A stretch of DNA of 64,000 nt from Oceanispirochaeta sp. (GTDB taxonomy: Bacteria; Spirochaetota; Spirochaetia; DSM-2461). This document shows, in pieces, positions 1 through 59,572 of this stretch. The notes under the pieces were generated by a model that saw nothing but the letters and a program-made list of their open reading frames with translations, had not been told where the DNA came from and did no database searches. The DNA lies in NCBI GenBank assembly GCA_963663385.2, contig CAXXXD010000002.1, forward strand, positions 1,216,001-1,280,000, in the 5' to 3' direction. The first letter of the stretch is position 1, and every line of letters begins with the position of its first letter. Made by a program: the position numbers and the translations under genes.

Positions 1-1
1 C

Positions 2-1483
2 ACATGGTCCGGTGCGATCCGGATGGAGTACTTTGTTTTTTATATCTCCCCGGCTGTTTTTGTCCTGTTTTTTAAAAATCTTTTTCCTGATGATATTAAT
101 AAGTGGTTTGCCCGTGTGGTAATCGGAATCAGTCTTGTTTTTTCCACTCTGGTATTCATCTTCAATACAATGATCCTCAGTCATACTGTTACTTTCTACC
201 AGGTCGTGTGGAATATTGAAATTCCCTACTATATCTATTTTATAATAAGAATTGCCCGAAAAAAACGGGCGGGTTCTTCCTATTTTGCACTTGCCACTCT
301 TATCTTTTTTTCCACTGTTGTAATCGAAACCCTGGTTATAAATAAAATCTCCGATCCGATTCGTATCAACTATCTGTATCCCCTGGAGATGATTACATCA
401 TTCGGATTTCTGGCTTATATTTTTGTACAGGCTATCTATCTGGCTTCCCGGTATTCCAGCGCCTTTGCCCGGGCTGAATCTCTGGCTGTAAAATTGAGAG
501 AAACAAACAGGGACCTTGAATACAGTGAAAAAAAATACCGTACCATCTTTGAAGAATCAAAGGATATGATTTTTATTACCGGGGTATTAAGCCGGGTACA
601 GGACTTTAATCCGGTGTGTACCGAGATTCTGGGATATACGAGAGAAGAGCTTCTAAGCTTATTCATGAAAGACATCCTTGCTGAATCTGATGATTTCTAC
701 CGGCTTAAAAATAAAATTATGGAACAGGGGTATATCAAGAATCTTGAGACCATTTTACTCAGTAAAAGCGGAAGACCGGTCAATGTTCTGGTTAATGTGG
801 TTCAAAGAAAAGGTGAGGACGGCCAGTTAAGAAGTTTTCAGTGGGTCGCCAAAGATATAACAGCCATGAAACAGGCTGAAGCTGAAAGACTGCGGGCTCA
901 GGAATTTGAACAGATGTCCATTACAGATCCGCTGACAAAAATCCATAACAGACGTTTTTTCAATGAAGCCATAAAAAAGGAAGAAGCCCGGACCAGAAGA
1001 ATTTTTAAACCCTTGTCCGTTATAATTTTTGATATAGATAACTTCAAAACGGTGAATGATACATTCGGACATTTTATCGGAGATCAGGTCCTTCAAAAAC
1101 TGGCTGCCCTTTGCAGGGATACAATGAGGGACAGTGATCTGTTTGCCCGTTTCGGAGGGGAAGAGTTCATAATCCTGACACCTGAAACGGATTCTCATAC
1201 TGCTATGGATATCGCAGAAAGGTTACGTGCCGTTGTTAATGAAACCATAATGGCTCGCTGTAATGAAGGCGATATCCTGATTTCTATCAGTCTGGGGGTC
1301 GCCAGCTGGAACCCTGCCGAATCTCCTGATATTTCAGCTGTACTGGATAGAGCTGACCGGGCACTGTATGACGCCAAGAACACAGGAAGAAACAAGGCTG
1401 TGCTCTGGGAGGATTTGGGTAATAAAGGGATGGTAATAAAGGGACGGAGGATTAATTTTATAGAAACTGAATCAGCCTTGTAA
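2..1483 (+). CDS. Membrane-anchored PAS-GGDEF diguanylate cyclase (7TM-DISM-like membrane region), 5' partial
   Basis: Frame open from base 2; several hydrophobic segments, then PAS (SEKKYRTIFEES...DIT), TDPLT, DIDNFK, RFGGEEF, ALYDAKNTGRN. Confidence 0.9.
   Translation, partial: TWSGAIRMEYFVFYISPAVFVLFFKNLFPDDINKWFARVVIGISLVFSTLVFIFNTMILSHTVTFYQVVWNIEIPYYIYFIIRIARKKRAGSSYFALATLIFFSTVVIETLVINKISDPIRINYLYPLEMITSFGFLAYIFVQAIYLASRYSSAFARAESLAVKLRETNRDLEYSEKKYRTIFEESKDMIFITGVLSRVQDFNPVCTEILGYTREELLSLFMKDILAESDDFYRLKNKIMEQGYIKNLETILLSKSGRPVNVLVNVVQRKGEDGQLRSFQWVAKDITAMKQAEAERLRAQEFEQMSITDPLTKIHNRRFFNEAIKKEEARTRRIFKPLSVIIFDIDNFKTVNDTFGHFIGDQVLQKLAALCRDTMRDSDLFARFGGEEFIILTPETDSHTAMDIAERLRAVVNETIMARCNEGDILISISLGVASWNPAESPDISAVLDRADRALYDAKNTGRNKAVLWEDLGNKGMVIKGRRINFIETESAL
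1441..1459 (+). repeat. Left inverted motif flanking RAYT (GGGACGGAGGattaatttt)
   Basis: Reverse complement of 2226-2244 (aaaatcaaaCCTCCGTCCC) with 2 mismatches. Confidence 0.75.
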
Positions 1484-1503
1484 TAATGACTGTTTCTACA
1501 GGT

Positions 1504-2001
1504 ATGAGAAAAGCAAGAATTATCCAGGAAGGCGCGACCTACCATGTAACGGGAAAGACCAATAGAGGCGAGTTTATCCTCTACTCCGATGAAGTTAAGG
1601 ATCTGTTTTTATCGGTGATCAGAGAGGCAAAGAATAAGTATGATTTCAAACTGATCAATTTCTGTATTATGAGCAATCATTTTCATCTGCTCATTGAACC
1701 AGGCCGAGGTACAAACCTTTCGAAGCTTATGCAGTGGATTTTGAGTGTTTTTGCCATAAGATTTAATAAAATCTATAAATTGATTGGTCATGTATGGTAC
1801 GACCGGTTTAAAAGCGTAATCGTCAGAACGTTTCAACACTATGTAAATGCCTTTCACTATATTTCTGACAATCCTGTAAAAGCTGGAATCTGTAAAAATG
1901 CCGGGGACTATTATTACAGCGGGTTATATGAATTAAAGAGACAAATCCGGAGGGTAATAAGCCCTCCGGATGACTGGATTAAACTGATAATCAGATTTTG
2001 A
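1504..2001 (+). mobile_element. REP-associated tyrosine transposase (RAYT, IS200-like Y1 HUH family)
   Basis: YHVT..N, FCIMSNHFHLL (HUH), GHVWYDRFKS, YISDNPVKAG motifs; MRKAR start at 1504 (alternative ATG 1486). Confidence 0.9.
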
Positions 2002-2140
2002 TAGAACACGCGTTTGCTATATATAAATCTCAATACTTTTCTTTATGGGAAGTATATCCTTTGAGTTGAAGAAATCGTATAAATAACCGGATTGATCATG
2101 GTAAAATCCAGATAATAGCGGTATTCAATTCAAATCATGT

Positions 2141-2247
2141 ACTTACTGTTAAATAATACTGATAAGGAATGCCATTTATGCCTGTATCTCTTATGATTTT
2201 CATGTAAAAAAGCCGTAATAAAGAGAAAATCAAACCTCCGTCCCCTG
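2141..2247 (+). repeat. RAYT right-end repeat, copy 1 (~100 bp imperfect direct repeat with 8812-8909)
   Basis: acttactgttaaataatactgataag ... attttcatgtaaaaaagccgtaataaagagaaaatcaaacctccgtcccctg. Confidence 0.85.
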
Positions 2248-2395
2248 ATCTTAACAATAAAATAGTATTGCCTAACAATCTTATTTCATGCTAATTATAA
2301 GTTGGTAAAAAATAAACACGGATAAAAAATGTCAACACTTATTAATTTCTAATGTTATTAGATAGGTTTTGTACATTTTTGATGTAGGGGACAAT

Positions 2396-3148
2396 ATGAG
2401 AAAAATAGCCCTGTACGGAAAGGGGGGGATCGGAAAATCCACTGTAACCAGTTCTCTTGCTGCGGCCATTGCAAGCAAGGGATACCGGGTTATGCAGATT
2501 GGTTGTGATCCTAAAGCGGATTCCACATTGAATCTAACCGGCGGGAAGGAAACTGTATCTGTCATCCAGTATTTACAGGACCATGGAGGATGTGACGCGC
2601 TGGATGAAATTGCCAATATAGGTTTCAAAAATATTGTCTGTTTTGAAGCAGGAGGGCCTACTCCCGGTATAGGCTGTGCCGGTCGGGGAATTGTCACAAC
2701 TTTTGAACTGCTTGACGAACTGGAGGCATTTGATGTCTATCAGCCCGATTTTGTCTTTTATGATGTTCTGGGCGATGTGGTCTGCGGGGGATTCGCCATG
2801 CCGATGAGAAACGGTTATGCCGATGAAGTTGTGATTGTCACCTCGGGAGAAAAAATGGCGCTTTTTGCTGCCGGGAACATCCAGACTGCGGTTGAAAATT
2901 TCCGGGAACGGAACGGCGTTGAACTTCTAGGGGTCATTTTGAACAAACGGAATGTGGCCGATGAAGAACAAATTGTCCGGGATTTTGTAAAGCAGAGCGG
3001 TACGGAACTGATTGGAATCGTTGAAAGGGACGGTAATATCCAAACCTATGAAAACCGCTGTCAGACTGTAATCCAGGGCGATCCTACCCTGCCCATTTCC
3101 CTCAACTTCATGGAGATCGCTGATCGGATTATCGGAGACAAATCATGA
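2396..3148 (+). CDS. Nitrogenase iron protein-like ATPase/reductase (NifH/BchL/CfbC family, group IV-like)
   Basis: YGKGGIGKS, GCDPKADST, EAGGPTPGIGCAGRG, YDVLGDVVCGGFAMP; ATG 2396 after GTAGGGG. Confidence 0.93.
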   Translation: MRKIALYGKGGIGKSTVTSSLAAAIASKGYRVMQIGCDPKADSTLNLTGGKETVSVIQYLQDHGGCDALDEIANIGFKNIVCFEAGGPTPGIGCAGRGIVTTFELLDELEAFDVYQPDFVFYDVLGDVVCGGFAMPMRNGYADEVVIVTSGEKMALFAAGNIQTAVENFRERNGVELLGVILNKRNVADEEQIVRDFVKQSGTELIGIVERDGNIQTYENRCQTVIQGDPTLPISLNFMEIADRIIGDKS

Positions 3149-4455
3149 CGGACGAATCTTCTCTCTACACGATTCCCGTTACACGCCTTATGGAAGAAAC
3201 GGAGAAAAGGAATTATCGGATCAACAGAGAAAGTTTTCCCCATTACTGCCCTCCCGGAGCGGGACATTGGGGGATGGTGAAAATGGCCTTTCAGGTTCCG
3301 GACGTTGCAGTAGTATTCGTTATCCCCATGGGCTGTGGCAGGCATGGAGGTATTGCTAACATGATGGACGGACTTCAGGGGATTCTGGCTTATCTGCCAA
3401 TAGCCGAAGTCGATATTGTCACGGGAGAGCATCTTCAGAAAACCGAAGATGCTCTGGCAGAACTGATTGAAGAGGATTCCCCCAAGGGGATTCTGCTGTT
3501 TACGACCTGTATTGACGAACTGCTGGGTTCGGATTTTGACAGTGTTATGGAACGTACGGAACAACAATACGGGATTCCTGTCAGGCGGGCCAAGATGAAT
3601 CCTTTAATGATGCTCTCCAGAAAATCGCCAGATTTGATGATCTATGTTTCCATGCATGATTTTCTGATTCCCGCAGAAAAAGAAGAAACCCTTTACAATC
3701 TTATCGGAACACCCTGCCCGGTAGATTCTGAATCGGAGCTGTATTGCCTGATAGAAAATGCCGGGTTCCAGCCCCTGCAGCATATTGCCGGTTTCAGGGA
3801 TTTTGAATCCCACTATTCCATGGGACGGGCCAGGGGGAATCTGCTTATCGGGATTGCCGGTATCCGGGCTGTGGAACACCTGGAAAAGAAGCTGGGTCAG
3901 TCCTGGATTGCTGTTTACGGCCTGTTCCGTCCTGAAGGGATTGCTGAGAATTACCAGGCCATGGAATCCTATCTCGGATGTGCTCTGGACTGGCAGCCTT
4001 ACGAAGAGGAACTTCATGTCTTTCTGGAGCAGGTCCGTCCGGCTCTGAAAGGAAAAACCTGTGTAATAGGAACAACATTGCAGGCCGCCCCTTTTGAATT
4101 AGCCCGTTTTCTAACGGAAATGGGGATGGAGGTCCGCTATATTACCGCCGGTTTAGTGCGTCCCTACGAACGGAAACACATGTCCTGGCTGGAAGAAAAG
4201 TCCCCGCAGATCAAAGTTATTCCCAGCGTGGATCCTTCACTCTCCATGACCGGAGGAATAGTGGATACGGTGGACTTCGGTTTCGGTCTGGATACTCCGG
4301 CCTATTTTAAAATTGGCAGTCTGGTAGATATTTCCGTTGATGATAACCTTTACGGATTCAGTGGAACGAGAAAGCTGATAGAGAAGATTCTGACCGCAGA
4401 ATCCTTTACCAAAACAATTAAAGAACACGTTTACAGCCTAAGCCTGGTTGTCTAG
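3145..4455 (+). CDS. Nitrogenase component-1 type oxidoreductase, alpha-like (NifD/BchN-like) subunit
   Basis: Three spaced Cys (HYCPP, PMGCGRH, TTCIDELLGSD), EVDIVTG motif; ATGA overlap with the nifH-like gene. Confidence 0.85.
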   Translation: MTDESSLYTIPVTRLMEETEKRNYRINRESFPHYCPPGAGHWGMVKMAFQVPDVAVVFVIPMGCGRHGGIANMMDGLQGILAYLPIAEVDIVTGEHLQKTEDALAELIEEDSPKGILLFTTCIDELLGSDFDSVMERTEQQYGIPVRRAKMNPLMMLSRKSPDLMIYVSMHDFLIPAEKEETLYNLIGTPCPVDSESELYCLIENAGFQPLQHIAGFRDFESHYSMGRARGNLLIGIAGIRAVEHLEKKLGQSWIAVYGLFRPEGIAENYQAMESYLGCALDWQPYEEELHVFLEQVRPALKGKTCVIGTTLQAAPFELARFLTEMGMEVRYITAGLVRPYERKHMSWLEEKSPQIKVIPSVDPSLSMTGGIVDTVDFGFGLDTPAYFKIGSLVDISVDDNLYGFSGTRKLIEKILTAESFTKTIKEHVYSLSLVV

Positions 4456-4464
4456 GAGAATTAT

Positions 4465-5616
4465 ATGAAAGGATTGATGCGTCATCTACCTCCTTTGGCG
4501 CCCGATTATTCCGGGGCCGTTTCGGTACTCTTTACTCTGGGGGGAGGAATAATTATCAATGGAGCCGACGGGTGTATCGGAAATGTTACAGGTTATGATG
4601 AACCCCGTTTCTTCGATCACCCTGTCCATATTTATAGTTCCGGGCTCAGGGAGATTAAAGCTGTAGCCGGTGATGAAGAAGTACTCCAGCGTAAGGTGGA
4701 AAATTCCGTGGGCGACAAGGATGTGCCCTTTATTGTATTACTGGGAACTCCCAATTCGGCAGTTATAGCCAGTGATCACCGGGGGGTCGCAAATATCTTG
4801 CGGAAAGGCCGCAGGATTCCTGTTTTAACCGTCAACACCACAGGAATCGATACATATGAAATCGGCGCTGCTAATGCCTACCTGGAACTTGCCAAAACCT
4901 TTTCCGAACCCATGGATGAACAATCGGGAATAAATATCATTGGCGCTTCCCCTATGGATTACTGGAGCTCTCGGCAGGTTGACGCCATGACGGAAGCCCT
5001 GGCCGGACAGGGAATCCATGTCCGGTCTGTCTGGGGAGCCGATAACTCCCTGGATAATATCCGTCGGTCTGCCGGTGCAAAAGCAAATCTGGTAGTATCC
5101 TGGTCGGGATTAAAAGCGGCTCGATGGATGGAGCGGCGCTATAAGATTCCTTTTGTTACCGGTGTTCCTCTGGGCAGGCAGTTAACAGAGGAATTATCAT
5201 ATGAATTAATGCATCTGGGTTCTGAAAGGCCGAAGAAAAGAAATCTCTTGAACGAAAGAAGAATGCCATCGGATTCACGGCAGGAACGGGTTCTGGTGAT
5301 TGGTGATCAGATCTGGGCTGATTCAGTCCGCCGGTATCAGCAATTGGAGCAGAACCGGAACGATGTCTACACAGCCAGCTTCTTTTCCCTTCATAAGTCA
5401 TTGAAGGGAGACAGGGATTTTTTTATTGAATCGGAAAAGCATCTGAAAGAACTGATAGCCGATTTAAAACCGGATATCCTCATGGCTGATCCATTATGTC
5501 AAATTTTTCTGGAAGATGAAAAAACGGAATTTGTCGCCCTGCCTCATCTGGCCGTTTCCAGCAGGCTTCACTGGGACCATGATCGTTGCTATACCGGATT
5601 AAATCCCGATTTTTAA
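4465..5616 (+). CDS. Nitrogenase component-1 type oxidoreductase, beta-like (NifK/BchB/BchZ-like) subunit
   Basis: PPLAPDYSGA, GADGCIGN, SGLRE..AVAGDEE, INIIGASP, A.ANLVVS..G..AARWME..Y.IPFV.G.P; AGGAG RBS. Confidence 0.85.
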   Translation: MKGLMRHLPPLAPDYSGAVSVLFTLGGGIIINGADGCIGNVTGYDEPRFFDHPVHIYSSGLREIKAVAGDEEVLQRKVENSVGDKDVPFIVLLGTPNSAVIASDHRGVANILRKGRRIPVLTVNTTGIDTYEIGAANAYLELAKTFSEPMDEQSGINIIGASPMDYWSSRQVDAMTEALAGQGIHVRSVWGADNSLDNIRRSAGAKANLVVSWSGLKAARWMERRYKIPFVTGVPLGRQLTEELSYELMHLGSERPKKRNLLNERRMPSDSRQERVLVIGDQIWADSVRRYQQLEQNRNDVYTASFFSLHKSLKGDRDFFIESEKHLKELIADLKPDILMADPLCQIFLEDEKTEFVALPHLAVSSRLHWDHDRCYTGLNPDF

Positions 5617-5623
5617 TCCTCTG

Positions 5624-5701
5624 AACATCTGTAATCCCTCAGATGTTTCTTTATAGGGAGAGAATAGCGGGGATCTCCAAAATATCGGCAGATTCCCCGC
5701 T
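5624..5701. terminator. Two hairpins between convergent operons (probable terminators)
   Basis: aacatctg/cagatgtt (5624-5647) and agcgggga/tccccgct (5666-5701). Confidence 0.45.
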
Positions 5702-5754
5702 CTTCCAACGACCTGTAACCGCTTTAGCTTGAGTAAATCGGAAGAGCTTTCCGT

Positions 5755-6501
5755 TTATCCGAATACTGGTATGATCGCCTGACGCACCGACATTTCATGC
5801 TCGAAGTTTAACTTTCTGATTTCCAATTCGTACAGGCGGCGCAGACTTTCGTCACTCAATGATTTCTCTGCTTTATCAAATATATATTTGCCGGAAGAAT
5901 ACATTAGAAGCGCTTTATCTGCGGCGAATACGGCCTGGTTCGGGGAATGAGTGGTAAATAGTACGGTCATACCCTCCTTCCTGCTCAGGCGGACAAGAGT
6001 CTGCAGAACTTTATTCTGATTCTTGAAGTCGAGAGCTGAAGTCGGTTCATCCAGAATCAGAATGGAACAATCCGAGGCCAGAGCCCGGGCAATGAGTATC
6101 ATCTGCCTCTCTCCGCCGCTTATTTCAGTGAAAGAACGGTTTCTGAATTCAGACAGCCCCAGTTTTTCAAGAATTGCTTCCGCAATTTCGTAGTCCCGTC
6201 TCCCGGGAGATGAAAAGGGAGCAATATGACGGGCTCGTCCCATTACCACCATATCCAGGGTGGAATAGGCAAAGGTGGATGTCACCTGCTGTGGGACATA
6301 ACCTGCGGCTCCTCCTAAAGTAACAGATCCACAGGATAGAGGAAGAATTCCCAGTAAGCACTTGAGCAACGTGGTTTTTCCCGTTCCGTTCCTGCCTAAA
6401 ATAGCCCCGATTTCTCCTTTTTCCAGGTGAAAGGACAGATCTTTGAATAAAGAATCTCCTTCAGGGGAGTAGGAAAAACGGATATCCTTTCCCTTAACCA
6501 T
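5755..6501 (-). CDS. Metal-chelate (Fe-siderophore/cobalamin/heme) ABC transporter ATP-binding protein, FecE/BtuD-like
   Basis: GRNGTGKTT, ISGGERQ, LILDEPTSALD, TTH; ATG 6501 overlaps the permease stop. Confidence 0.92.
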   Translation of the reverse strand: MVKGKDIRFSYSPEGDSLFKDLSFHLEKGEIGAILGRNGTGKTTLLKCLLGILPLSCGSVTLGGAAGYVPQQVTSTFAYSTLDMVVMGRARHIAPFSSPGRRDYEIAEAILEKLGLSEFRNRSFTEISGGERQMILIARALASDCSILILDEPTSALDFKNQNKVLQTLVRLSRKEGMTVLFTTHSPNQAVFAADKALLMYSSGKYIFDKAEKSLSDESLRRLYELEIRKLNFEHEMSVRQAIIPVFG

Positions 6502-7522
6502 TGCCCCATCCTTTGCCGCCGGTTTTTTTGAGAAGATAGGCAAAAAGGGGCGCTCCGATGATTGCCGTGATAATGCCTATGGGGATTTCAGCCGGTGTGG
6601 CGGCACGAGCCAGATTATCAATCCACAAAAGGTAAGTCCCGCCGATAAGAGCCGACGCGGGGAGCATCCGCCGATGATCGGGACCGACCAGCATCCTGGC
6701 GATATGGGGAACGACCAGTCCGACCCACCCGATGATTCCAGCCACGGAAACGACAGCCGAAGCGATAATCGCCACAGCAGTTAAGGCCAATCCCCTGATC
6801 TTTGCAGGATTGATCCCTATGGCCAGGGAGTCTTCGTCTCCCAGGCTAAGGATATTGATGCGGAAACGGAGCAGCATAAGAAATAGCATCCCCGTAATAA
6901 TAGGAGCCAGAGCGATAAGAAGCTGTTTATATGTGGCAGAGGAAAAGCTGCCCATAAGCCATATCACAATAGCCGGAAGCTTATCATAAGGATCAGCGGT
7001 ATATTTCATAAGCGATGTTAATGCTGTGAAGAAAGCGTTGGCAATAACTCCCGCTAATACAAGCATGAGGATGGAAGATCTTTTTCCGGAGCGGCCGATC
7101 CCGCAGACTAGAAGCAGGGATAAGATACCAAAGGCAAAGGCCAAACCCATCGTTGCAATTTGCGAATTCAGCAAAGAAATCGCCAGGGCGCCTCCGAAGC
7201 CGCTTCCCGATGTTACACCGATTACCTGGGGACTAACCAGAGGATTTTTAAATATCCCCTGAAGGGCTGCCCCCGCCATGGCAAGGGAGGCTCCGGAAAG
7301 AAGAGCCAGGGCCGCTCTGGGCATTCTTATTAATGTAACAACCCGAAAGTCCGTACTGCTCCAGAAAGAATCAATCGGGATCAGGAAAGATGAGAGGATC
7401 CCCAGAACTTTATGCGGCGAAACACGATACCTCCCGATCCCCAGGGAAAGAACTACCGAGATTATGAGTAGAATAAACAATAACACTGTCAACGAGGGAA
7501 ATCCTGTCTTTTTCATTTTCAT
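6494..7522 (-). CDS. FecCD/BtuC family ABC permease
   Basis: IRMPR, GAALQGIFKNPLVSP..IGV..G, GIIGWVGLVVPHIAR, EIPIGIITAIIGAP. Confidence 0.93.
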   Translation of the reverse strand: MKMKKTGFPSLTVLLFILLIISVVLSLGIGRYRVSPHKVLGILSSFLIPIDSFWSSTDFRVVTLIRMPRAALALLSGASLAMAGAALQGIFKNPLVSPQVIGVTSGSGFGGALAISLLNSQIATMGLAFAFGILSLLLVCGIGRSGKRSSILMLVLAGVIANAFFTALTSLMKYTADPYDKLPAIVIWLMGSFSSATYKQLLIALAPIITGMLFLMLLRFRINILSLGDEDSLAIGINPAKIRGLALTAVAIIASAVVSVAGIIGWVGLVVPHIARMLVGPDHRRMLPASALIGGTYLLWIDNLARAATPAEIPIGIITAIIGAPLFAYLLKKTGGKGWGNG

Positions 7523-7561
7523 CTCTGTCGCTGTTTTCCTGGCTTAACCCTGAACGGATTA

Positions 7562-8689
7562 TTATTTAAACATTTCGTAACTGGAGGAATCTCCGTTAAG
7601 ATCGATACGGAGAATGGAGTCCAATTGAGAATCGGATGGGACTTTCCCGTAAATCCATTTGTAATTACTTCTGATTTCTTCACGGATGTCCCAGCTGAAA
7701 CGGGACGGATGATTGACCATGGTCATCCATTTCCACATTAGGGGAGATTCCTGATTAGGGGGATCCCAGCGATACCCTCCCAGGGGAAGTTTATAAACTT
7801 TCCGTTCCTTCACAGCACTGACATCGGCCAGTTTGGGATTACTGTAGACGTCCTCGGGAGTCAAACTGGATTCAAATCCGTTTAAATAGATAATTTGAGG
7901 ATCCCAGGATATTATCTGTTCTTCGTTCACTTCGGTGAAGCCTTTAACATCCGCCGCTACGTTGGTTCCTCCGGTAAAGTTCAGGTAGAAATCATTATAT
8001 GTTCCCGATCCTGCAACCATCCTGGAAGAAAGGTAACGGAGAAAATAGAGTACCCGTGGTTTTTCTTCTGTTGGAATGGTATGGGTCAATCCATTGATTT
8101 CATCTAAGCTCTCTTTATGCCAATCGATGATTTTCCGGGCTTTTTCTTCCTTTCCGAGAATCTTTCCAAAGGAAGTAATCCAGCTTTCCAGATCTTCCTG
8201 GGTTCCGTACATTAAGAGAAAAGTGGTCAATCCCGCATTTTCAAGAGGTCCGATGACATTTACTCCCAGATGCCCCCATTGAAAAACAAGATCCGGGTTT
8301 ATAGTAAGCAGTGATTCTATGTTCGGAACAAAACCGTCACCCACAACATCGGAGTTGATATTCAGAGCTTCGGGGAAAAAGTCACCCAGTATGCCTTCAG
8401 CAAGGGCTGCTTTAGAAGACGAGTGCATTCCGGCAAGATGATCGGTTCCACCGTCAACGGCTATCATCAGACTGGCCGCGGGTATCGGGATTGTGACAAT
8501 ACTGTTGATCGGCTTTGGGATTATTACGGTTCTACCAGTCTGGTCTGTAAGTTCAAATGAAGAGGTGGTTGCCGCCTCTTCCGGCTGTGTCTCCCGGGAT
8601 CCCGTGCACCAGAGTCCGGTATTCAGACCCAGTAAAAGAAGGGAAAGCAAAAGAAATCTTGATGCGGCATTGTTAATCTGTTGTTTCAT
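7562..8689 (-). CDS. Class III (Fe-chelate/cobalamin) ABC substrate-binding protein
   Basis: Signal peptide, TDQTGRTVIIP, PNIESLLTINPDLV, V.EEQIISWDPQII, VSAVKERKVY. Confidence 0.9.
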   Translation of the reverse strand: MKQQINNAASRFLLLSLLLLGLNTGLWCTGSRETQPEEAATTSSFELTDQTGRTVIIPKPINSIVTIPIPAASLMIAVDGGTDHLAGMHSSSKAALAEGILGDFFPEALNINSDVVGDGFVPNIESLLTINPDLVFQWGHLGVNVIGPLENAGLTTFLLMYGTQEDLESWITSFGKILGKEEKARKIIDWHKESLDEINGLTHTIPTEEKPRVLYFLRYLSSRMVAGSGTYNDFYLNFTGGTNVAADVKGFTEVNEEQIISWDPQIIYLNGFESSLTPEDVYSNPKLADVSAVKERKVYKLPLGGYRWDPPNQESPLMWKWMTMVNHPSRFSWDIREEIRSNYKWIYGKVPSDSQLDSILRIDLNGDSSSYEMFK

Positions 8690-8811
8690 GATTGACTCCT
8701 GTTTTTCTGTAAGTTAGCTAAAGCAAATAATATTTGTATTAACTACATTAATGAATTAAAATGTCAAGACAATTGGAATGATTAAATAATGAAAGTAGAA
8801 ACGCATTTTAA

Positions 8812-8909
8812 ACTCACTGTTAAACAATCCTGATAAGCACTGTCTGTGTATCTTCCAATTTTCATGTAAAAATGCCGTAATAAAGAAAAAAAACAAACCT
8901 CCGTCCCTG
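8812..8909 (+). repeat. RAYT right-end repeat, copy 2
   Basis: actcactgttaaacaatcctgataag ... attttcatgtaaaaatgccgtaataaagaaaaaaaacaaacctccgtccctg. Confidence 0.85.
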
Positions 8910-8926
8910 CTATAAAGGAAAAAGTA

Positions 8927-9727
8927 ATGAAATACAGAGTTATAAAGGATTACAGCGAAGCTCCTTCCAATCCCATTATGATCACTGCTGGTGAAAAACT
9001 TGCTGCTATTAAGGAATCCGATCCTTCCGGAGACTGGCCTGATTGGATTTTCTGCAAAGGTGAGGGTAAAGAGGGCTGGGTTCCCCGGCAGATATTGACT
9101 ATTACGGGGACGGAGGCTGTTACTTCGGCTGTTTCTTCAGAAGATTATTGCGCCCGGGAGTTAAACCTGACGCGGGGAGAGGTTCTGACAGCGGAAAGGC
9201 AGTTGAACGGCTGGATCTGGGGAGCAAAAGAGATCGCTCCCTGTGAGAAGGGATGGGCTCCCCTGAACTGCCTGGAGCAGGTTGACCATCCGGATTATAC
9301 GATCCGAACCATGAAGATGGAGGATTATGAGGAAGTTTACCGATTATGGACCGAAACTGAGGGGATGGGTCTGCGTTCTCTGGATGACTCGGAAGAGGGG
9401 ATAGGCAGATTCCTCAAACGGAATCCTGCCACCTGTTTTCTCTGCCGGTCCGGGGAGAAACTGGCCGGTGTTATCCTCTGCGGCCATGACGGCAGGAGAG
9501 GGTATATCTACCATGCCGCTGTAGATAAAGCCTTCCGCAGACGGGGCATCGGAAAGGCTCTTGTAAATAAGGTCTTAACCGCTCTTGAGAAGGAGGGTAT
9601 TAATAAGACGGCTCTGGTTGTATTTGACTCCAACACTGCCGGTAATAGTTTCTGGGAATCCCTCGGTTTTACGGAACGATGCGATTTGATTTACAGGAAC
9701 AGGGCTGTCAACGAGTCAAATACATGA
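8927..9727 (+). CDS. Tandem SH3-like domains fused to GNAT N-acetyltransferase
   Basis: Two SH3-like units (W..W..C...EGWVP; DY..EL...GE...NGW.W...KGWAP), then GNAT (GHDGRRGYIYH.AV...RRRGIGKAL). Confidence 0.8.
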   Translation: MKYRVIKDYSEAPSNPIMITAGEKLAAIKESDPSGDWPDWIFCKGEGKEGWVPRQILTITGTEAVTSAVSSEDYCARELNLTRGEVLTAERQLNGWIWGAKEIAPCEKGWAPLNCLEQVDHPDYTIRTMKMEDYEEVYRLWTETEGMGLRSLDDSEEGIGRFLKRNPATCFLCRSGEKLAGVILCGHDGRRGYIYHAAVDKAFRRRGIGKALVNKVLTALEKEGINKTALVVFDSNTAGNSFWESLGFTERCDLIYRNRAVNESNT

Positions 9728-9807
9728 TGTGCAGCAGTGTTTGATTAATAGCCGCTCTCTTGTGTATCCTGTATGAAAATCTTTAATAATTGAGAAGGAA
9801 AGATAGC

Positions 9808-10095
9808 ATGATTGGGATAATGGCCGAGTTTGATATTAAAAGTGATTGTATTGATAAATTCCTTGAAGAGGTAAAACCTCTGGTTAAAGCATCTAACGAA
9901 GAAGCCGGTTGTATTAAATATGAGCTTCACAAGGCTTTGGGATCGGACAATATCTTTGTTATGGTGGAAGAGTGGAAAGATCAGGCAGCTATTGATTTTC
10001 ATAACAGTTCGGAACACTTTACAACAATCGTACCCAGGCTGGGGGCTCTGTCGGCTAAGGAAACCAAAGTGACTCTTATGGAAAGAGTCCTGTAA
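9808..10095 (+). CDS. Putative quinol monooxygenase (ABM domain)
   Basis: EAGCIKYELH...FVMVEEWKD.AA.DFH..SEHF. Confidence 0.85.
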   Translation: MIGIMAEFDIKSDCIDKFLEEVKPLVKASNEEAGCIKYELHKALGSDNIFVMVEEWKDQAAIDFHNSSEHFTTIVPRLGALSAKETKVTLMERVL

Positions 10096-10142
10096 TCTAT
10101 ACTTAACAGAACTAAATTGTTAGATACCAGATATTCTCTCCT

Positions 10143-10946
10143 CTATATCCAATCCCGGAAATACCCCATCCGGGACGTTCTTATTTTCATAACGTCCTCC
10201 GGTTCAATCCGGAAGCTGCAAAATGACTCTTCCATTCCCGCTGCTTCCGCCAGGATATCTCCCCTCGGGTTTATAATCAGGGAGGCCGCCGGGCTCCTCC
10301 CTTTATCCGGCCGGTCCCATATCTGATTGCAGCTGGCTATAAAACAGGTGTTGTCATACGCTCTGGCGGGCAGGTATTTCTTCATCCTCATCAGCTTCTC
10401 AGCCCCTGTTTCCCGGGGAGAGGCGAAGGGCATAAGCAGTAAACCGGCTCCCTTGTCAGCCAGTCTGCCGCTGATTTCGGGAAAATGGGTTTCGGCGCAA
10501 ATCTGGATGCCTATATGAAAGGGGAGTTTAAAGGGCAGCCGGTCATTTCTTAACACCTCGGCCGTCTTCCCCGGTGAAAAGACTGATCTCTCCGAAGGAC
10601 CGGGGATGTTTTTTTCATGTATATGGAGTATTTCCCCTCTGTATAAAACGTAATGGGCTATTATGATATTGCCGCCTCTGAAAAGAGGCGCTCCCGCCAG
10701 GACGATCCCCTGATAACCTGTTTCCCGTGTAAGAACCGCTAAATCATCCAGGGTCTGCTGAATCATTTTTCTATGGCTTAACAGCCACTCCCGGTTTTTA
10801 ACATATCCAGTCAGACTGAGTTCCGGGAACAGGAGTATCCGGGTATCTCCGGTTTTCTCCAGCCATTTCCGGTGTCCCGACAGGTTCTGACTCAGATCTC
10901 CGGGGCGGCAGGCGAGGTTTACAGTTGTAAGCTTGATCAGACTCAT
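10143..10946 (-). CDS. Nitrilase-related carbon-nitrogen hydrolase
   Basis: Glu-Lys-Cys triad: LFPELSLTGY, HEKNI, ICAETHFPE; ARAYDN; start uncertain (10946 or 10973). Confidence 0.85.
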   Translation of the reverse strand: MSLIKLTTVNLACRPGDLSQNLSGHRKWLEKTGDTRILLFPELSLTGYVKNREWLLSHRKMIQQTLDDLAVLTRETGYQGIVLAGAPLFRGGNIIIAHYVLYRGEILHIHEKNIPGPSERSVFSPGKTAEVLRNDRLPFKLPFHIGIQICAETHFPEISGRLADKGAGLLLMPFASPRETGAEKLMRMKKYLPARAYDNTCFIASCNQIWDRPDKGRSPAASLIINPRGDILAEAAGMEESFCSFRIEPEDVMKIRTSRMGYFRDWI

Positions 10947-11177
10947 CTGTTTAACCGCTGAATTCTGCCGCAATATACGGTATCCGTGTGTTTTCCTGCA
11001 TGGTAGTATTAATGCACTGTTTTTTAAAAAAGTAAAATATCCGGAAGCAGGTTGAGCCTCTCTGTGTGCGGCTGTTAACTTATATTGCGGTTTATCTGTA
11101 TACAGTTGTCTGACTTTTTAACAATATTCCAACAATCATTGACACATGCCTGAACATAGTTTTACCATTATATATCT

Positions 11178-12323
11178 ATGACAGGTATAAGCCTTCCAGG
11201 GGAAGGACGGTATTTTAAAGCGGTATTTTCCATTTCCATTCTTTTACTGAATGCTCTTATTATAATGGTATCGAATTCCCTTTTTTTTCAGGATCGATAT
11301 TTTACACAGCAGTTTGTTTTCGGGCGTATCCTGGAGGTTTCATCTGACAATCTGGATTCGGACCCCTATATCCCGGGCAGCAGTCTGGGCAAGCAGTCCC
11401 TGAAGGTGGAGATCCTGTCCGGCAGGGATAAAGGTTCAGTGTATGATATTTTCAATACACTCTCCAGATCCCATAATATCCGGGCGGAAAAGGGAAAAAA
11501 GTATGTCTTCTCCATAAGGGAAGAGGACGGGCGGGATAAGGTCGTCTGGCTTTACAATTATAACCGTCTGCCTGTCCTTCTCACTGTAGCGGCGCTGTTT
11601 ATCCTCTTCATAATACTGGTGGCCGGCAAACAGGGGTTCCGGTCTCTGGTCTCGCTCAGTTTTACAGCTGTTGTTATCCTGTTTGTAATTGTTCCCATGA
11701 TCCTGCGGGGGTATGACCCCATTCCCCTGGCTATTATCTGTCTGAGTATTATCACTCTGGTGAGCTTCCTTCTTCTGACAGGATGGAGCCGAAAAACCCT
11801 TATTGCCCTTCTGGGAACCATGGGGGGGATTATGGCAGCAGGTCTTATCAGTCTTGCCGCTTCCCGGGCCGCCCATCTGTCGGGGATTCACCTTGAGAAA
11901 GGGGAGCAGATTCTGTATATTGCCCAGGATTACGGGATCCGGATACACGGTTTCCTGTTTATTTCCATTCTGATTGCTTCACTGGGTGCCGTAATGGATG
12001 TGGCTATGAGTCTGGCGTCCTCCATGGAAGAGATTAAAAAACACAATCTCTCCCTGACTCCCCGGGAACATTTCCACTCCGGCATGGTTATAGGACGGGA
12101 TTTGATAGGAACAATGGTAAACACGCTGATACTGGCTTTTACCGGCAGTTCGTTTACTCTGATTCTCATGATCGCGGGACTATCTATGACATTCAGGCAG
12201 TTTATCAACATACCCCTGATTGCCATAGAAATTATACAGGCTTTGGCCGGGAGTATCGGAATTATCCTTTCAGTACCCCTTACCAATATAATAGCTACAT
12301 TATTACACACAAAGGAGACGTGA
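11178..12323 (+). CDS. YibE/F family membrane protein
   Basis: LGAVMDVAMSLAS, GRDLIGTMVNTLILAF.G, GSIG. Confidence 0.9.
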   Translation: MTGISLPGEGRYFKAVFSISILLLNALIIMVSNSLFFQDRYFTQQFVFGRILEVSSDNLDSDPYIPGSSLGKQSLKVEILSGRDKGSVYDIFNTLSRSHNIRAEKGKKYVFSIREEDGRDKVVWLYNYNRLPVLLTVAALFILFIILVAGKQGFRSLVSLSFTAVVILFVIVPMILRGYDPIPLAIICLSIITLVSFLLLTGWSRKTLIALLGTMGGIMAAGLISLAASRAAHLSGIHLEKGEQILYIAQDYGIRIHGFLFISILIASLGAVMDVAMSLASSMEEIKKHNLSLTPREHFHSGMVIGRDLIGTMVNTLILAFTGSSFTLILMIAGLSMTFRQFINIPLIAIEIIQALAGSIGIILSVPLTNIIATLLHTKET

Positions 12324-48772: not shown

Positions 48773-48883
48773 GATTCATTATTAATAGAATTTCAGTACT
48801 ATGTCAAAAGGCTGACGACGGAATGTGTGTCTTCACCGGTTTGTGAGTTGACTTTTTATACGAGTTTGATCATATTAAACTCA

Positions 48884-49189
48884 AAGCCCAGACGGAGACG
48901 AGTAACAGAACCTCCGGATTACCAGAGAAGCGGCCCCTCGGCTGGAAGGCTGCCATTCCGGATTCTGTGAAAACCACTCCCGAGCTGCTCCCCGAAATGG
49001 ATAATTCCTTTGGAATGATCCGTAGTAGACGGAGACGAGATCCCGCGTTAAAGGAGAGCTAAGCGCACGGCCGTATGGAAAAACTAGCGGCAGTGAAGTA
49101 AGGTGGTACCGCGGAGAGCCCTTTTGTTCTTCGTCCTTATGCTGAAATTTAATTTTTAGTAGCAGGACGGCGAGTAAAAGGGTTTTTTT
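48884..49189 (+). promoter_or_regulatory. T-box riboswitch (Thr specifier ACC) with terminator
   Basis: Stem I with AGTA, AGAGA and GCTGGAAG loops; specifier GAAA-ACC-AC (48973-48975); T-box AAGGTGGTACCGCG (49100-49113); terminator ending in T7 at 49183-49189; upstream of thrS. Confidence 0.92.
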
Positions 49190-54349: not shown

Positions 54350-55891
<1,542 letters not shown>

Positions 55892-56085
55892 AGCGTGAAA
55901 GGTATAAGTCTTGCAGTTTTGTACATTGTAAGCAGTTAGACATCATTTTTACGAGTGATGCCTGCTACAGAGTTGCGTTCCCCGGTCTTCGACTGTTGTA
56001 CGCAACGGGCTTGGCTTTCGTCAATTACTTCTAATTTCCCGTCAGATAATTCCCAAAGGGATCTGTTTTACTGATTCCAAAACCG

Positions 56086-56159
56086 GGGGGTATAGCTCAG
56101 CTGGCTAGAGCACTAGATTTGCATTCTAGGGGTCTGGGGTTCGAATCCCCATACCTCCA
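56086..56159 (+). tRNA. tRNA-Ala (TGC), CCA not encoded
   Basis: GGGGGTA/TACCTCC acceptor with G3:U70, anticodon arm ctaga-TTTGCAT-tctag, GGTTCGAATCC T-arm. Confidence 0.96.
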
Positions 56160-56240
56160 AAGCCTGGTTTAAAACATTTTAGATATTTTAGTTCAGGCGT
56201 TCTTTTAAATAGGTAATAGCGAAGGGATAAATAATAATAT

Positions 56241-59164
<2,924 letters not shown>

Positions 59165-59276
59165 ATATTATTATTTATCTCTTCAGTTTTATATAAATTG
59201 CAATCGCTTTGGAAGCTAGGAATACTTCTGGAGAGTGAATGCTTCTTGTCAGGGTAAGACTTGATAAGATTATTAT

Positions 59277-59374
<98 letters not shown>

Positions 59375-59383
<9 letters not shown>

Positions 59384-59572
59384 TTATTTGCCCCTTGTCT
59401 TAGGATGAGGGGCTTTTTCTTTTATAACCAGCTGCAACGACCGTAGCCAGTGCGGCTTGAGCGAAGCTCAAACGCACGTTGACGAAGCCCGAAAGGGCGA
59501 AGTGAGTTGCCAGTTTATTTGCCCCTTGTCTTAGGATGAGGGCCTTTTTTTTTATAACCGGTTGCAATGACC
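59375..59572 (+). repeat. Direct repeat (~67 bp, period 131) of the 5S 3' end plus terminator
   Basis: gttgccagtttatttgccccttgtcttaggatgaggg..tttt..tataacc.g.tgcaa.gacc at 59375 and 59506. Confidence 0.9.

Follow-up and report, generated by a model that had tools for sequence, protein, structure and literature searches.

The window considered here is a stretch of 64,000 nucleotides from an Oceanispirochaeta sp. (contig CAXXXD010000002.1, positions 1,216,001 to 1,280,000), and the system in question fills its positions 2396-8689, where two convergent operons with six genes in total encode a nitrogenase-like reductase (H, D and K) and an ATP-binding cassette (ABC) importer of class III. The main finding is that reductase and importer form a conserved unit, a pairing beyond chance that is strongly supported by its recurrence across genomes. 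We regard it as fairly probable that this unit is an 'import and reduce' system of strict anaerobes, in which an ATP-driven reductase would act on the cargo of the importer. The finding is a testable lead. Nitrogenase, DPOR, COR and CfbCD are all rejected as identities of the reductase, which is also without the features that define Mar.

The open reading frame (ORF) listing and Pfam matches give the following features for this interval:

2396..3148, plus strand: H, NifH-like ATP-dependent [4Fe-4S] reductase subunit, 250 amino acids (aa); Fer4_NifH, 281 bits
3145..4455, plus strand: D, NifD/NifE-like catalytic subunit, 436 aa; Oxidored_nitro, 99.8 bits
4465..5616, plus strand: K, NifK/BchB-like partner subunit, 383 aa; Oxidored_nitro, 93.8 bits
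5617..5754, no strand: convergent spacer between both operons, with hairpins, as read from the sequence
5755..6543, minus strand: ABC importer ATPase, 262 aa from TTG; ABC_tran, 94 bits; Walker A at residue 50
6494..7522, minus strand: FecCD/BtuC-type permease, 342 aa; FecCD, 289.8 bits over the full profile
7562..8689, minus strand: class III substrate-binding protein with signal peptide, 375 aa; Peripla_BP_2, 82.8 bits

The frame of H runs in the ORF list from a TTG (2369-3148), and the ATG at 2396, which the first-pass annotation of this DNA had taken as the start, gives the protein of 250 aa. The same annotation had described a tight H-D-K operon with an ATGA overlap and a 9-bp gap, facing a complete importer of the FecBCDE/BtuFCD type. 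The ORF coordinates agree, with four bases shared by the H stop and the D start and nine bases between D and K, and so do the ABC_tran, FecCD and Peripla_BP_2 matches. With a FecCD permease, an ABC ATPase and a Peripla_BP_2 protein bearing an export signal, the second operon has the parts of a class III (type II) ABC importer; Cys28 of the binding protein resembles a lipobox cysteine when the N-terminus is read by eye. The ATPase may have its true start downstream of the TTG, given the 50 nt that its ORF shares with the permease gene. One terminator-like site lies in the spacer on the minus strand (5700-5688), which is a weak sign, as the region has no more such sites than shuffles, and promoter and terminator scans of the region gave counts not above shuffled sequence.

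The linkage between the two halves was followed through 28 loci with D relatives, found by a profile search in contigs representing one genome per species, onto which the six window proteins were mapped by phmmer. Binding protein, permease and ATPase adjoin H-D-K in 24 of them. One further locus (L033) holds a split binding-protein gene and an ATPase without a permease, and another (L029) is without a FecCD system, an importer of the Opp/Nik type beginning there 12 bases past K; L019 and L030, whose contigs measure only about 3 kb, are uninformative on linkage. Class III importer genes are thus found in 25 of the 26 informative loci, and some ABC importer in all 26. A neighbourhood survey for class III ABC co-occurrence had been suggested with the annotation as a check, and it is positive; the concern voiced there, that homologues might be unlinked to metal-chelate transporters, is answered by the full importers at 24 of the 28 loci. 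Gene orders include BCE-HDK, HDK-BCE, B-HDK-CE and BCE-DKH (BCE being the importer genes), as well as divergent and convergent arrangements, with a constant gene set. The carriers belong to Bacillota, Actinomycetota, Spirochaetota, Thermodesulfobacteriota, Acidobacteriota and Chloroflexota, and include a methanogen.

The pairing occurs in addition in one genome of the same genus and one of the same class, on the Treponema saccharophilum plasmid pTS1, and in two additional modules of Enterocloster citroniae, and three more distant nitrogenase-like loci (Wukongibacter, Methanospirillum) likewise adjoin such importers. At E <= 1e-30 the D family takes in 385 of 1.84 billion representative clusters, and the whole genome to which the window belongs has just 7 Peripla_BP_2 matches at E <= 0.001. 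It could be argued that there is no functional coupling at all, reductase and importer being neighbours by descent or shared regulation alone, given the two convergent transcription units of the window and the possibility that both belong to a metal-starvation regulon. The gene set, however, survives at least six gene orders across several bacterial phyla and a methanogen, and most arrangements among the 28 loci are co-directional with short gaps, so that this explanation, already disfavoured, is very improbable.

Three importer-linked nitrogenase-like modules are present per genome in E. citroniae (L092, L093) and in Methanospirillum stamsii (L095, L096), and a second binding-protein gene is present in many modules, as if several cargoes were served. 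In Wukongibacter sp. M2B1 (L094, 5589-7678) the FecCD permease beside the distant nitrogenase-like operon is spread over four ORFs, which may reflect a decayed gene or sequencing errors.

With H and two Oxidored_nitro subunits, the reductase belongs to the nitrogenase superfamily (NFL), and none of the six proteins reaches an equivalog cut-off in NCBIfam. For H, the nifH model gives 297 bits where 394 are required and the CfbC model 287 where 402 are; BchL and BchX give 177 and 166. No Nif or Bch model yields more than 46 bits with D or K, D scoring best on NifE (40 bits; BchN, 32) and K on BchB (46), and the cut-offs for BchL/N/B and BchX/Y/Z are all above 320 bits. The CfbD model (cut-off 268 bits) gives no match for D or K at E <= 0.001; as a control, the proteins of M. 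stamsii reach 415 bits on CfbC and 530 bits on CfbD. Among solved structures, H matches NifH 1cp2 with 237.6 bits, the best relative of D is NifE (30 bits) and that of K is BchB (40 bits). The match of D to solved MarD, the alpha chain of methylthio-alkane reductase (9fmg_A, 9d9u_A), is 19.9 bits (E 0.003), and the similarity of D to K is insignificant (best E 0.33). The model of D (pLDDT 87.1) has the nitrogenase component-1 fold and lies about equally far from the NifK, NifE/N, MarD and DPOR (BchN/B) subunits (TM 0.58-0.67, 13-18% identity).

The trees lead to the same separation. Their references came from annotated plasmids and one genome, and consist of NifHDK from Nitratidesulfovibrio vulgaris, BchLNB and BchXYZ from Roseobacter litoralis, and NifHDKEN, CfbC and CfbD from M. 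stamsii; both trees are the product of a quick search, and the long branches of some references drew a warning from the program. In the H tree (41 rows) the family forms a 28-row clade with an SH-aLRT of 99, apart from NifH, CfbC, BchL and BchX, and this clade contains both H proteins of the genome. The D/K tree (54 rows, using 13 of the 28 loci) shows D and K each as an 18-row clade with support 100 and a stem of about 1.5 changes per site, outside NifD/E, NifK/N, BchN/Y, BchB/Z and CfbD. A phylogeny against Nif, Bch and Cfb references, another check suggested with the annotation, therefore places H, D and K each in a separate, well-supported clade.

Several known identities were tried and rejected. 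DPOR and COR fall away with scores far below their cut-offs and a position outside the Roseobacter Bch references in both trees, and CfbCD with scores below cut-off and with D and K distinct, each in its own clade. MarHDK is rejected on the 19.9 bits of D to MarD, the absence of ligands for a P-cluster or L-like cluster, and the lack of NifB. The radical-SAM-rich neighbourhood of Group VI (Elusimicrobia type) is not seen either: the neighbours scanned include a single radical SAM gene, at L093, and the 95 proteins examined around the 28 loci include none. The NifH-like protein of Group VI branches beside Group V (BchL/BchX); that H scores far higher on the NifH and CfbC models than on those of BchL and BchX tends to speak against Group VI membership. 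According to the available text of a 2026 review of nitrogenase-like enzymes, most lettered subgroups of Group IV (A, D, E, F) retain ligands of the P-cluster type and occur together with NifB homologues and sulfur genes; these traits do not hold here.

In H, the P-loop GKGGIGKS stands at residues 8-15, and Cys94 (GIGCAGRG) and Cys130 (VVCGGFA) align with solved NifH, just as the annotation had read a P-loop and both [4Fe-4S] cysteines. In an alignment of 33 D and 31 K family sequences, Cys64 and Cys122 of D are present in 33/33 and align with cysteines of NifD, NifE, BchN, BchY and CfbD, and Cys35 is present in 23/33, near but outside the column of the first P-cluster cysteine of NifD. K keeps a single cysteine, Cys37 (31/31), which aligns with a P-cluster cysteine of NifK and with the aspartate of BchB; the next cysteine position of NifK is a proline in all 31 sequences. 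The column of the FeMo-co cysteine (NifD Cys275) is a gap in all 33 D sequences. The two invariant cysteines of D, its frequent third one and the sole cysteine kept in K make it likely that D and K hold a single [4Fe-4S] cluster between them.

The same pattern bears on nitrogen fixation. A search for nifB across the whole genome gave no credible match (best 20 bits, with stops), and NifE/N are absent from the genome, where PF00148 (Oxidored_nitro) is confined to two H-D-K modules. A true, if unusual, N2-fixing nitrogenase would have in its favour only the H-D-K gene order and the similarity of H to clostridial NifH (47-48% identity). All nif equivalog scores are far under cut-off, a conserved cysteine stands at just four of the six P-cluster positions, one of these in only 23 of the 33 D sequences, and the FeMo-co cysteine is absent along with NifB and NifE/N. 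On these sequence grounds a nitrogenase is refuted, with a negligible residual probability; the annotation was right to read something other than N2 fixation, which the ligand pattern and the lack of NifB together exclude.

In the proposed function, the class III importer, consisting of the lipoprotein binding protein, the FecCD permease and the ATPase, would carry a metal-bound ligand into the cytoplasm. The NifH-like dimer would, by ATP hydrolysis, hand low-potential electrons to the D/K component, which would hold one [4Fe-4S] cluster at its interface through three cysteines of D and one of K, in a DPOR-like manner with all-cysteine ligation. D/K would then reduce the imported cargo, by which the metal would be freed or the ligand converted. 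The annotation had already proposed an import-and-reduce system, and of this proposal the conserved unit, the position outside Nif, Bch and Cfb, and the remoteness of D from MarD have stood; the action of the reductase on the importer's cargo, the type of cluster and the reaction are what we infer. More tentatively, the family may represent an uncharacterised use of NFL enzymes in strict anaerobes of at least six phyla, where an ATP-driven NifH-like/DK pair 'unloads' imported chelates and paralogous pairs serve differing cargoes. In that case the pair could reduce ferric or other metal complexes that ordinary reductases cannot handle at such low potentials, and it could also reduce the macrocycle in haem-like tetrapyrroles, after which the metal would drop out without oxygen.

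What the cargo might be can be approached from the importer and from the gene context. In NCBIfam the ATPase comes closest to zinc AztA and to haem ABC ATPases, at about 145 bits for either, and the permease to the archaeal-type BtuC (229 bits), all below cut-off. The binding protein is closest to 4OVK from Veillonella parvula, a structure whose listing names no ligand (212 bits, 36% identity), and its model (pLDDT 87.1) superimposes on it with a TM of 0.88; literature searches returned nothing on 4OVK. The nearest structures that contain a ligand are those of MolA (molybdate), CeuE (Ni-His) and YiuA (Fe-catecholate), with haem binders appearing from rank 29 and BtuF at rank 47 with about 20 bits.

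At the 28 loci, 134 ORFs stand no more than 2.8 kb from a module, and the neighbour scan took in 95 of them, importer parts and some distant ORFs having been left out by eye. Genes near the modules include a TonB-dependent receptor (L028) and TonB (L027), DtxR-type repressors (L024, L095), flavodoxins (L018, L024), CobW-type GTPases (L018, L092) and a DUF364 'heavy-metal chelation' protein (L095). A trio formed by a CobW-type GTPase, an ABC ATPase and an SBP_bac_6 binding protein adjoins modules in two unrelated clostridia (L018, 13815-16231; L092, 5559-7947). Class I S-adenosylmethionine (SAM) methyltransferases or O-methyltransferases flank 9 of the 28 loci, one of them partial, and Crp/Fnr-type regulators lie upstream in six of the 28 and in one E. 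citroniae module. At L096 of M. stamsii (C1:1711000-1730999), a distant homologue stands with a FecCD importer, a CobN/ChlH-type chelatase, ChlI- and ChlD-like subunits and CbiZ, and the locus looks like a tetrapyrrole salvage or remodelling island. The nitrogenase-like H and D of this locus appear fused into one open frame of 671 aa.

Two kinds of cargo can be drawn from these clues. A small metal chelate or metallophore, with reductive release of the metal, is favoured by the relatives of the binding protein, by the TonB, DtxR, flavodoxin, CobW and DUF364 neighbours, and by an esterase gene of PF00756 at the second module in the genome of the window; within the import-and-reduce reading it is a possible cargo, though short of likely. 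A metallated tetrapyrrole such as haem, with reduction of the ring, seems less likely again, and has on its side the [4Fe-4S]-only precedent, the closeness of K to BchB, the chelatase and CbiZ set of L096, and the flanking methyltransferases. As to the precedent, the characterised [4Fe-4S]-type relatives DPOR, COR and CfbCD all reduce tetrapyrroles, according to the available text of the 2026 review.

Part of the same evidence can also be read in favour of assembly. In the main rival, D/K would be a NifEN-like scaffold that builds or holds a metal cofactor from the imported metal, with H as a maturation ATPase, and would be no reductase for catabolism or salvage, an assembly role being an idea offered in the available text of Dos Santos et al. 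2012 (BMC Genomics 13:162; PMC3464626). NifE is indeed the best sequence match of D (40 bits in NCBIfam, 30 bits among solved structures), CobW-type metallochaperone GTPases lie near two modules, and the binding protein resembles MolA and Ni-His binders. The genome, however, is without NifB, the position of the FeMo-co/L-cluster cysteine is a gap in 33/33 D sequences, no candidate client enzyme is conserved among the neighbours scanned, and up to three paralogous modules per genome suit differing cargoes better than one cofactor. We consider a scaffold improbable.

The methyltransferases beside 9 of the 28 loci (one partial) could instead be taken as a sign of a small organic-molecule reductase of the Mar/Isr kind, cleaving for example C-S bonds for sulfur, with the ABC system importing the organic substrate. 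The literature, in the text available, links most uncharacterised Group IV systems to sulfur metabolism, and a gene of the O-acetylhomoserine sulfhydrylase type lies about 2.4 kb off in one of the 28 loci (L040). Such a function is more improbable still, as the binding proteins and permeases are of class III metal-chelate types and not of Ssu/Tau type, D matches solved MarD with merely 19.9 bits (E 0.003), ligands for P-cluster and L-cluster are missing together with MarB and NifB, and no cysteine or methionine synthase was found in the window ORFs scanned.

Several points weigh against the import-and-reduce reading itself. The reductase and importer operons of the window are convergent and not co-transcribed. 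The clues to the cargo conflict, the precedent of the enzyme pointing to a tetrapyrrole and the relatives of the binding protein to small chelates or even an oxyanion, and no substrate-specific gene is conserved across all loci. No cobalamin riboswitch was found in positions 1-12000 of the window at E <= 1, and none preceding the module in eight loci, which argues against a corrinoid cargo; the single one found (L018) precedes a separate transporter. A BtuFCD cobalamin importer was rejected on this absence and on the low standing of BtuF (about 20 bits, rank 47 by fold). The trees contain no Mar, Isr, Nfa or Group VI sequences. Ordinary siderophore reductases have no need of ATP. To our knowledge, no nitrogenase-like enzyme acts on a non-tetrapyrrole chelate, and the available text of the 2026 review agrees.

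The module is not alone in its genome. On another contig (C4:34922-41518; locus L013, 6923-13519) there is a second six-gene set, with all genes on one strand, whose H, D and K are 54%, 27% and 32% identical to those of the window, and a genome-wide search for Oxidored_nitro returns only the window module and this paralogous one. Its first gene, in the place of the binding protein, has a dockerin-like domain as sole Pfam match (19.7 bits, below cut-off) and bears a faint likeness to the window binding protein (E 0.012). The PF00756 esterase gene faces the end of this second operon; we take this family to be one that includes enterobactin esterases. The 'orphan' of the annotation is thus one of two modules, and a member of a D family of hundreds of clusters.

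Among relatives the module is patchy, with a D-family match in 3 of 61 genomes (its own included), in 1 of 10 others of the same genus and in 0 of 26 others of the same family. In the trees, H, D and K of the window, together with their counterparts from a Spirochaetales metagenome-assembled genome, nest among Bacillota sequences, which suggests that the module came from clostridia by transfer. GC composition gives no sign of a recent transfer (module 0.480, window 0.481, genome 0.465).

The surroundings of the module hold four further features:

1486-2001: gene for a REP-associated tyrosine transposase (RAYT; 92 bits, cut-off 80), just upstream of the left repeat
2141..2264, no strand: left-hand copy of a direct repeat that flanks the module, 132 nt ahead of the start codon of H
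8812..8926, no strand: right-hand copy of the direct repeat, which extends as far as the start codon of the following gene
8927-9727: GNAT/SH3 protein gene, directly after the right repeat

A BLASTN search of the 5.3-Mb genome finds the direct repeat at these two places only, with 77% identity along 105 nt, and its 28-nt core occurs twice in the window versus an expectation of 0. Between the copies, the ORF listing has no ORF of at least 80 aa besides the six genes and their antisense shadows, which upholds the description in the annotation of bounding repeats with nothing else between them. The repeat and the adjoining RAYT gene are compatible with insertion of the module as a cassette. The right repeat abuts the next start codon, as if the entry of a cassette had duplicated a promoter region. 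In genomes of the same genus, where an empty insertion site was sought, the downstream GNAT/SH3 protein matches in its GNAT half alone (60-66% identity), too diverged for a comparison of flanks.

The remainder of the window consists of housekeeping genes. A T-box leader (48880-49141) precedes the threonyl-tRNA synthetase gene in this spirochaete, and a complete rRNA operon (16S, tRNA, 23S, 5S) occupies 54350-59384, the ORF at 56424-57077 being spurious, as it lies inside the 23S gene. The named relatives of the synthetase all belong to Spirochaetota, with Spirochaeta isovalerica (79%) as the nearest named species. The scan of the window for nif, bch, cfb and mar genes took in 11 of 27 ORFs of at least 80 aa in the first 12 kb and 40 of 53 ORFs of at least 150 aa beyond; outside the module it found none, although a limit of 150 aa would let small genes such as cfbA slip through. 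Within this scope, the absence of nifB/E/N, bch/chl, cfbA/B/E and marB from the 64 kb, as noted in the annotation, is borne out.

The system had also been called undescribed, and this does not hold. Dos Santos et al. 2012 (PMC3464626) report, in one paragraph of the available text and with no function given, nitrogenase-like genes co-located with ABC transporters, with the same reduced pattern of cysteines. Literature searches found this co-location in print only there, in passing, and no functional study of the clade. What is new beyond 2012 is how far the linkage reaches, the assignment of the importer to class III, the accessory genes that recur and the paralogous modules within genomes. 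The 2026 review, in its available text, counts uncharacterised systems among the greatest challenges of the field and finds gene context of little help beyond the sulfur links of Group IV and the tetrapyrrole links of Group VI. For this clade, the consistent context of a dedicated metal-chelate importer yields a short list of testable cargoes, and the binding protein can be used as a substrate bait, with a solved close homologue (4OVK) and cultured hosts at hand. Cultured carriers include Enterocloster citroniae DSM 19261, Paramaledivibacter caminithermalis DSM 15212, Anoxynatronum species, M. stamsii Pt1 and T. saccharophilum. If the proposed function is true, the superfamily would gain a new reaction class, and guts, sediments and digesters a route of O2-independent metal acquisition.

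Among the systems already described, the closest in outline are the examples of Dos Santos et al. 2012 (PMC3464626), Mlab_1039/1040 of Methanocorpusculum labreanum and Dhaf_1539/1540 of Desulfitobacterium hafniense, which, by the published description as available, share two conserved cysteines in the D/E-like and one in the K/N-like subunit, the co-location with an ABC transporter and the absence of FeMo-co ligands. With the type II importers BtuCDF, HmuTUV and FecBCDE/FhuBCD, the importer has in common the FecCD permease, the ABC ATPase and the class III binding protein. It differs from them in that no curated equivalog cut-off is reached, no cobalamin riboswitch accompanies it, and the binding protein groups with 4OVK, 4PAG, 4HN9, MolA, CeuE and YiuA and not with BtuF or haem binders.

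MarHDK and IsrHDK (Group IV-C, IV-F) are likewise H-D-K systems of anaerobes, and Isr also has ABC importer genes, in that case for sulfonates; the class of importer is different, and here neither their ligand set nor NifB is present. The resemblance to CfbCD lies in H, nearly equal on CfbC (287) and NifH (297), and in a [4Fe-4S]-only type of reductase without NifB. CfbD, however, pairs with itself and has no K subunit; in the present system D and K are two different proteins, and M. stamsii has true CfbC and CfbD besides this module. DPOR (BchL/BchN/BchB) shares the ATP-dependent NifH-like reductase and a heteromeric D/K-type component, probably with one [4Fe-4S] cluster that would take three ligands from D and one from its partner, and BchB provides the best matches of K. 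In contrast to DPOR, which belongs to a biosynthetic cluster, the reductase described here has no chlorophyll genes nearby and is tied to an importer, and its K subunit carries a cysteine at the position of the ligand aspartate of BchB.

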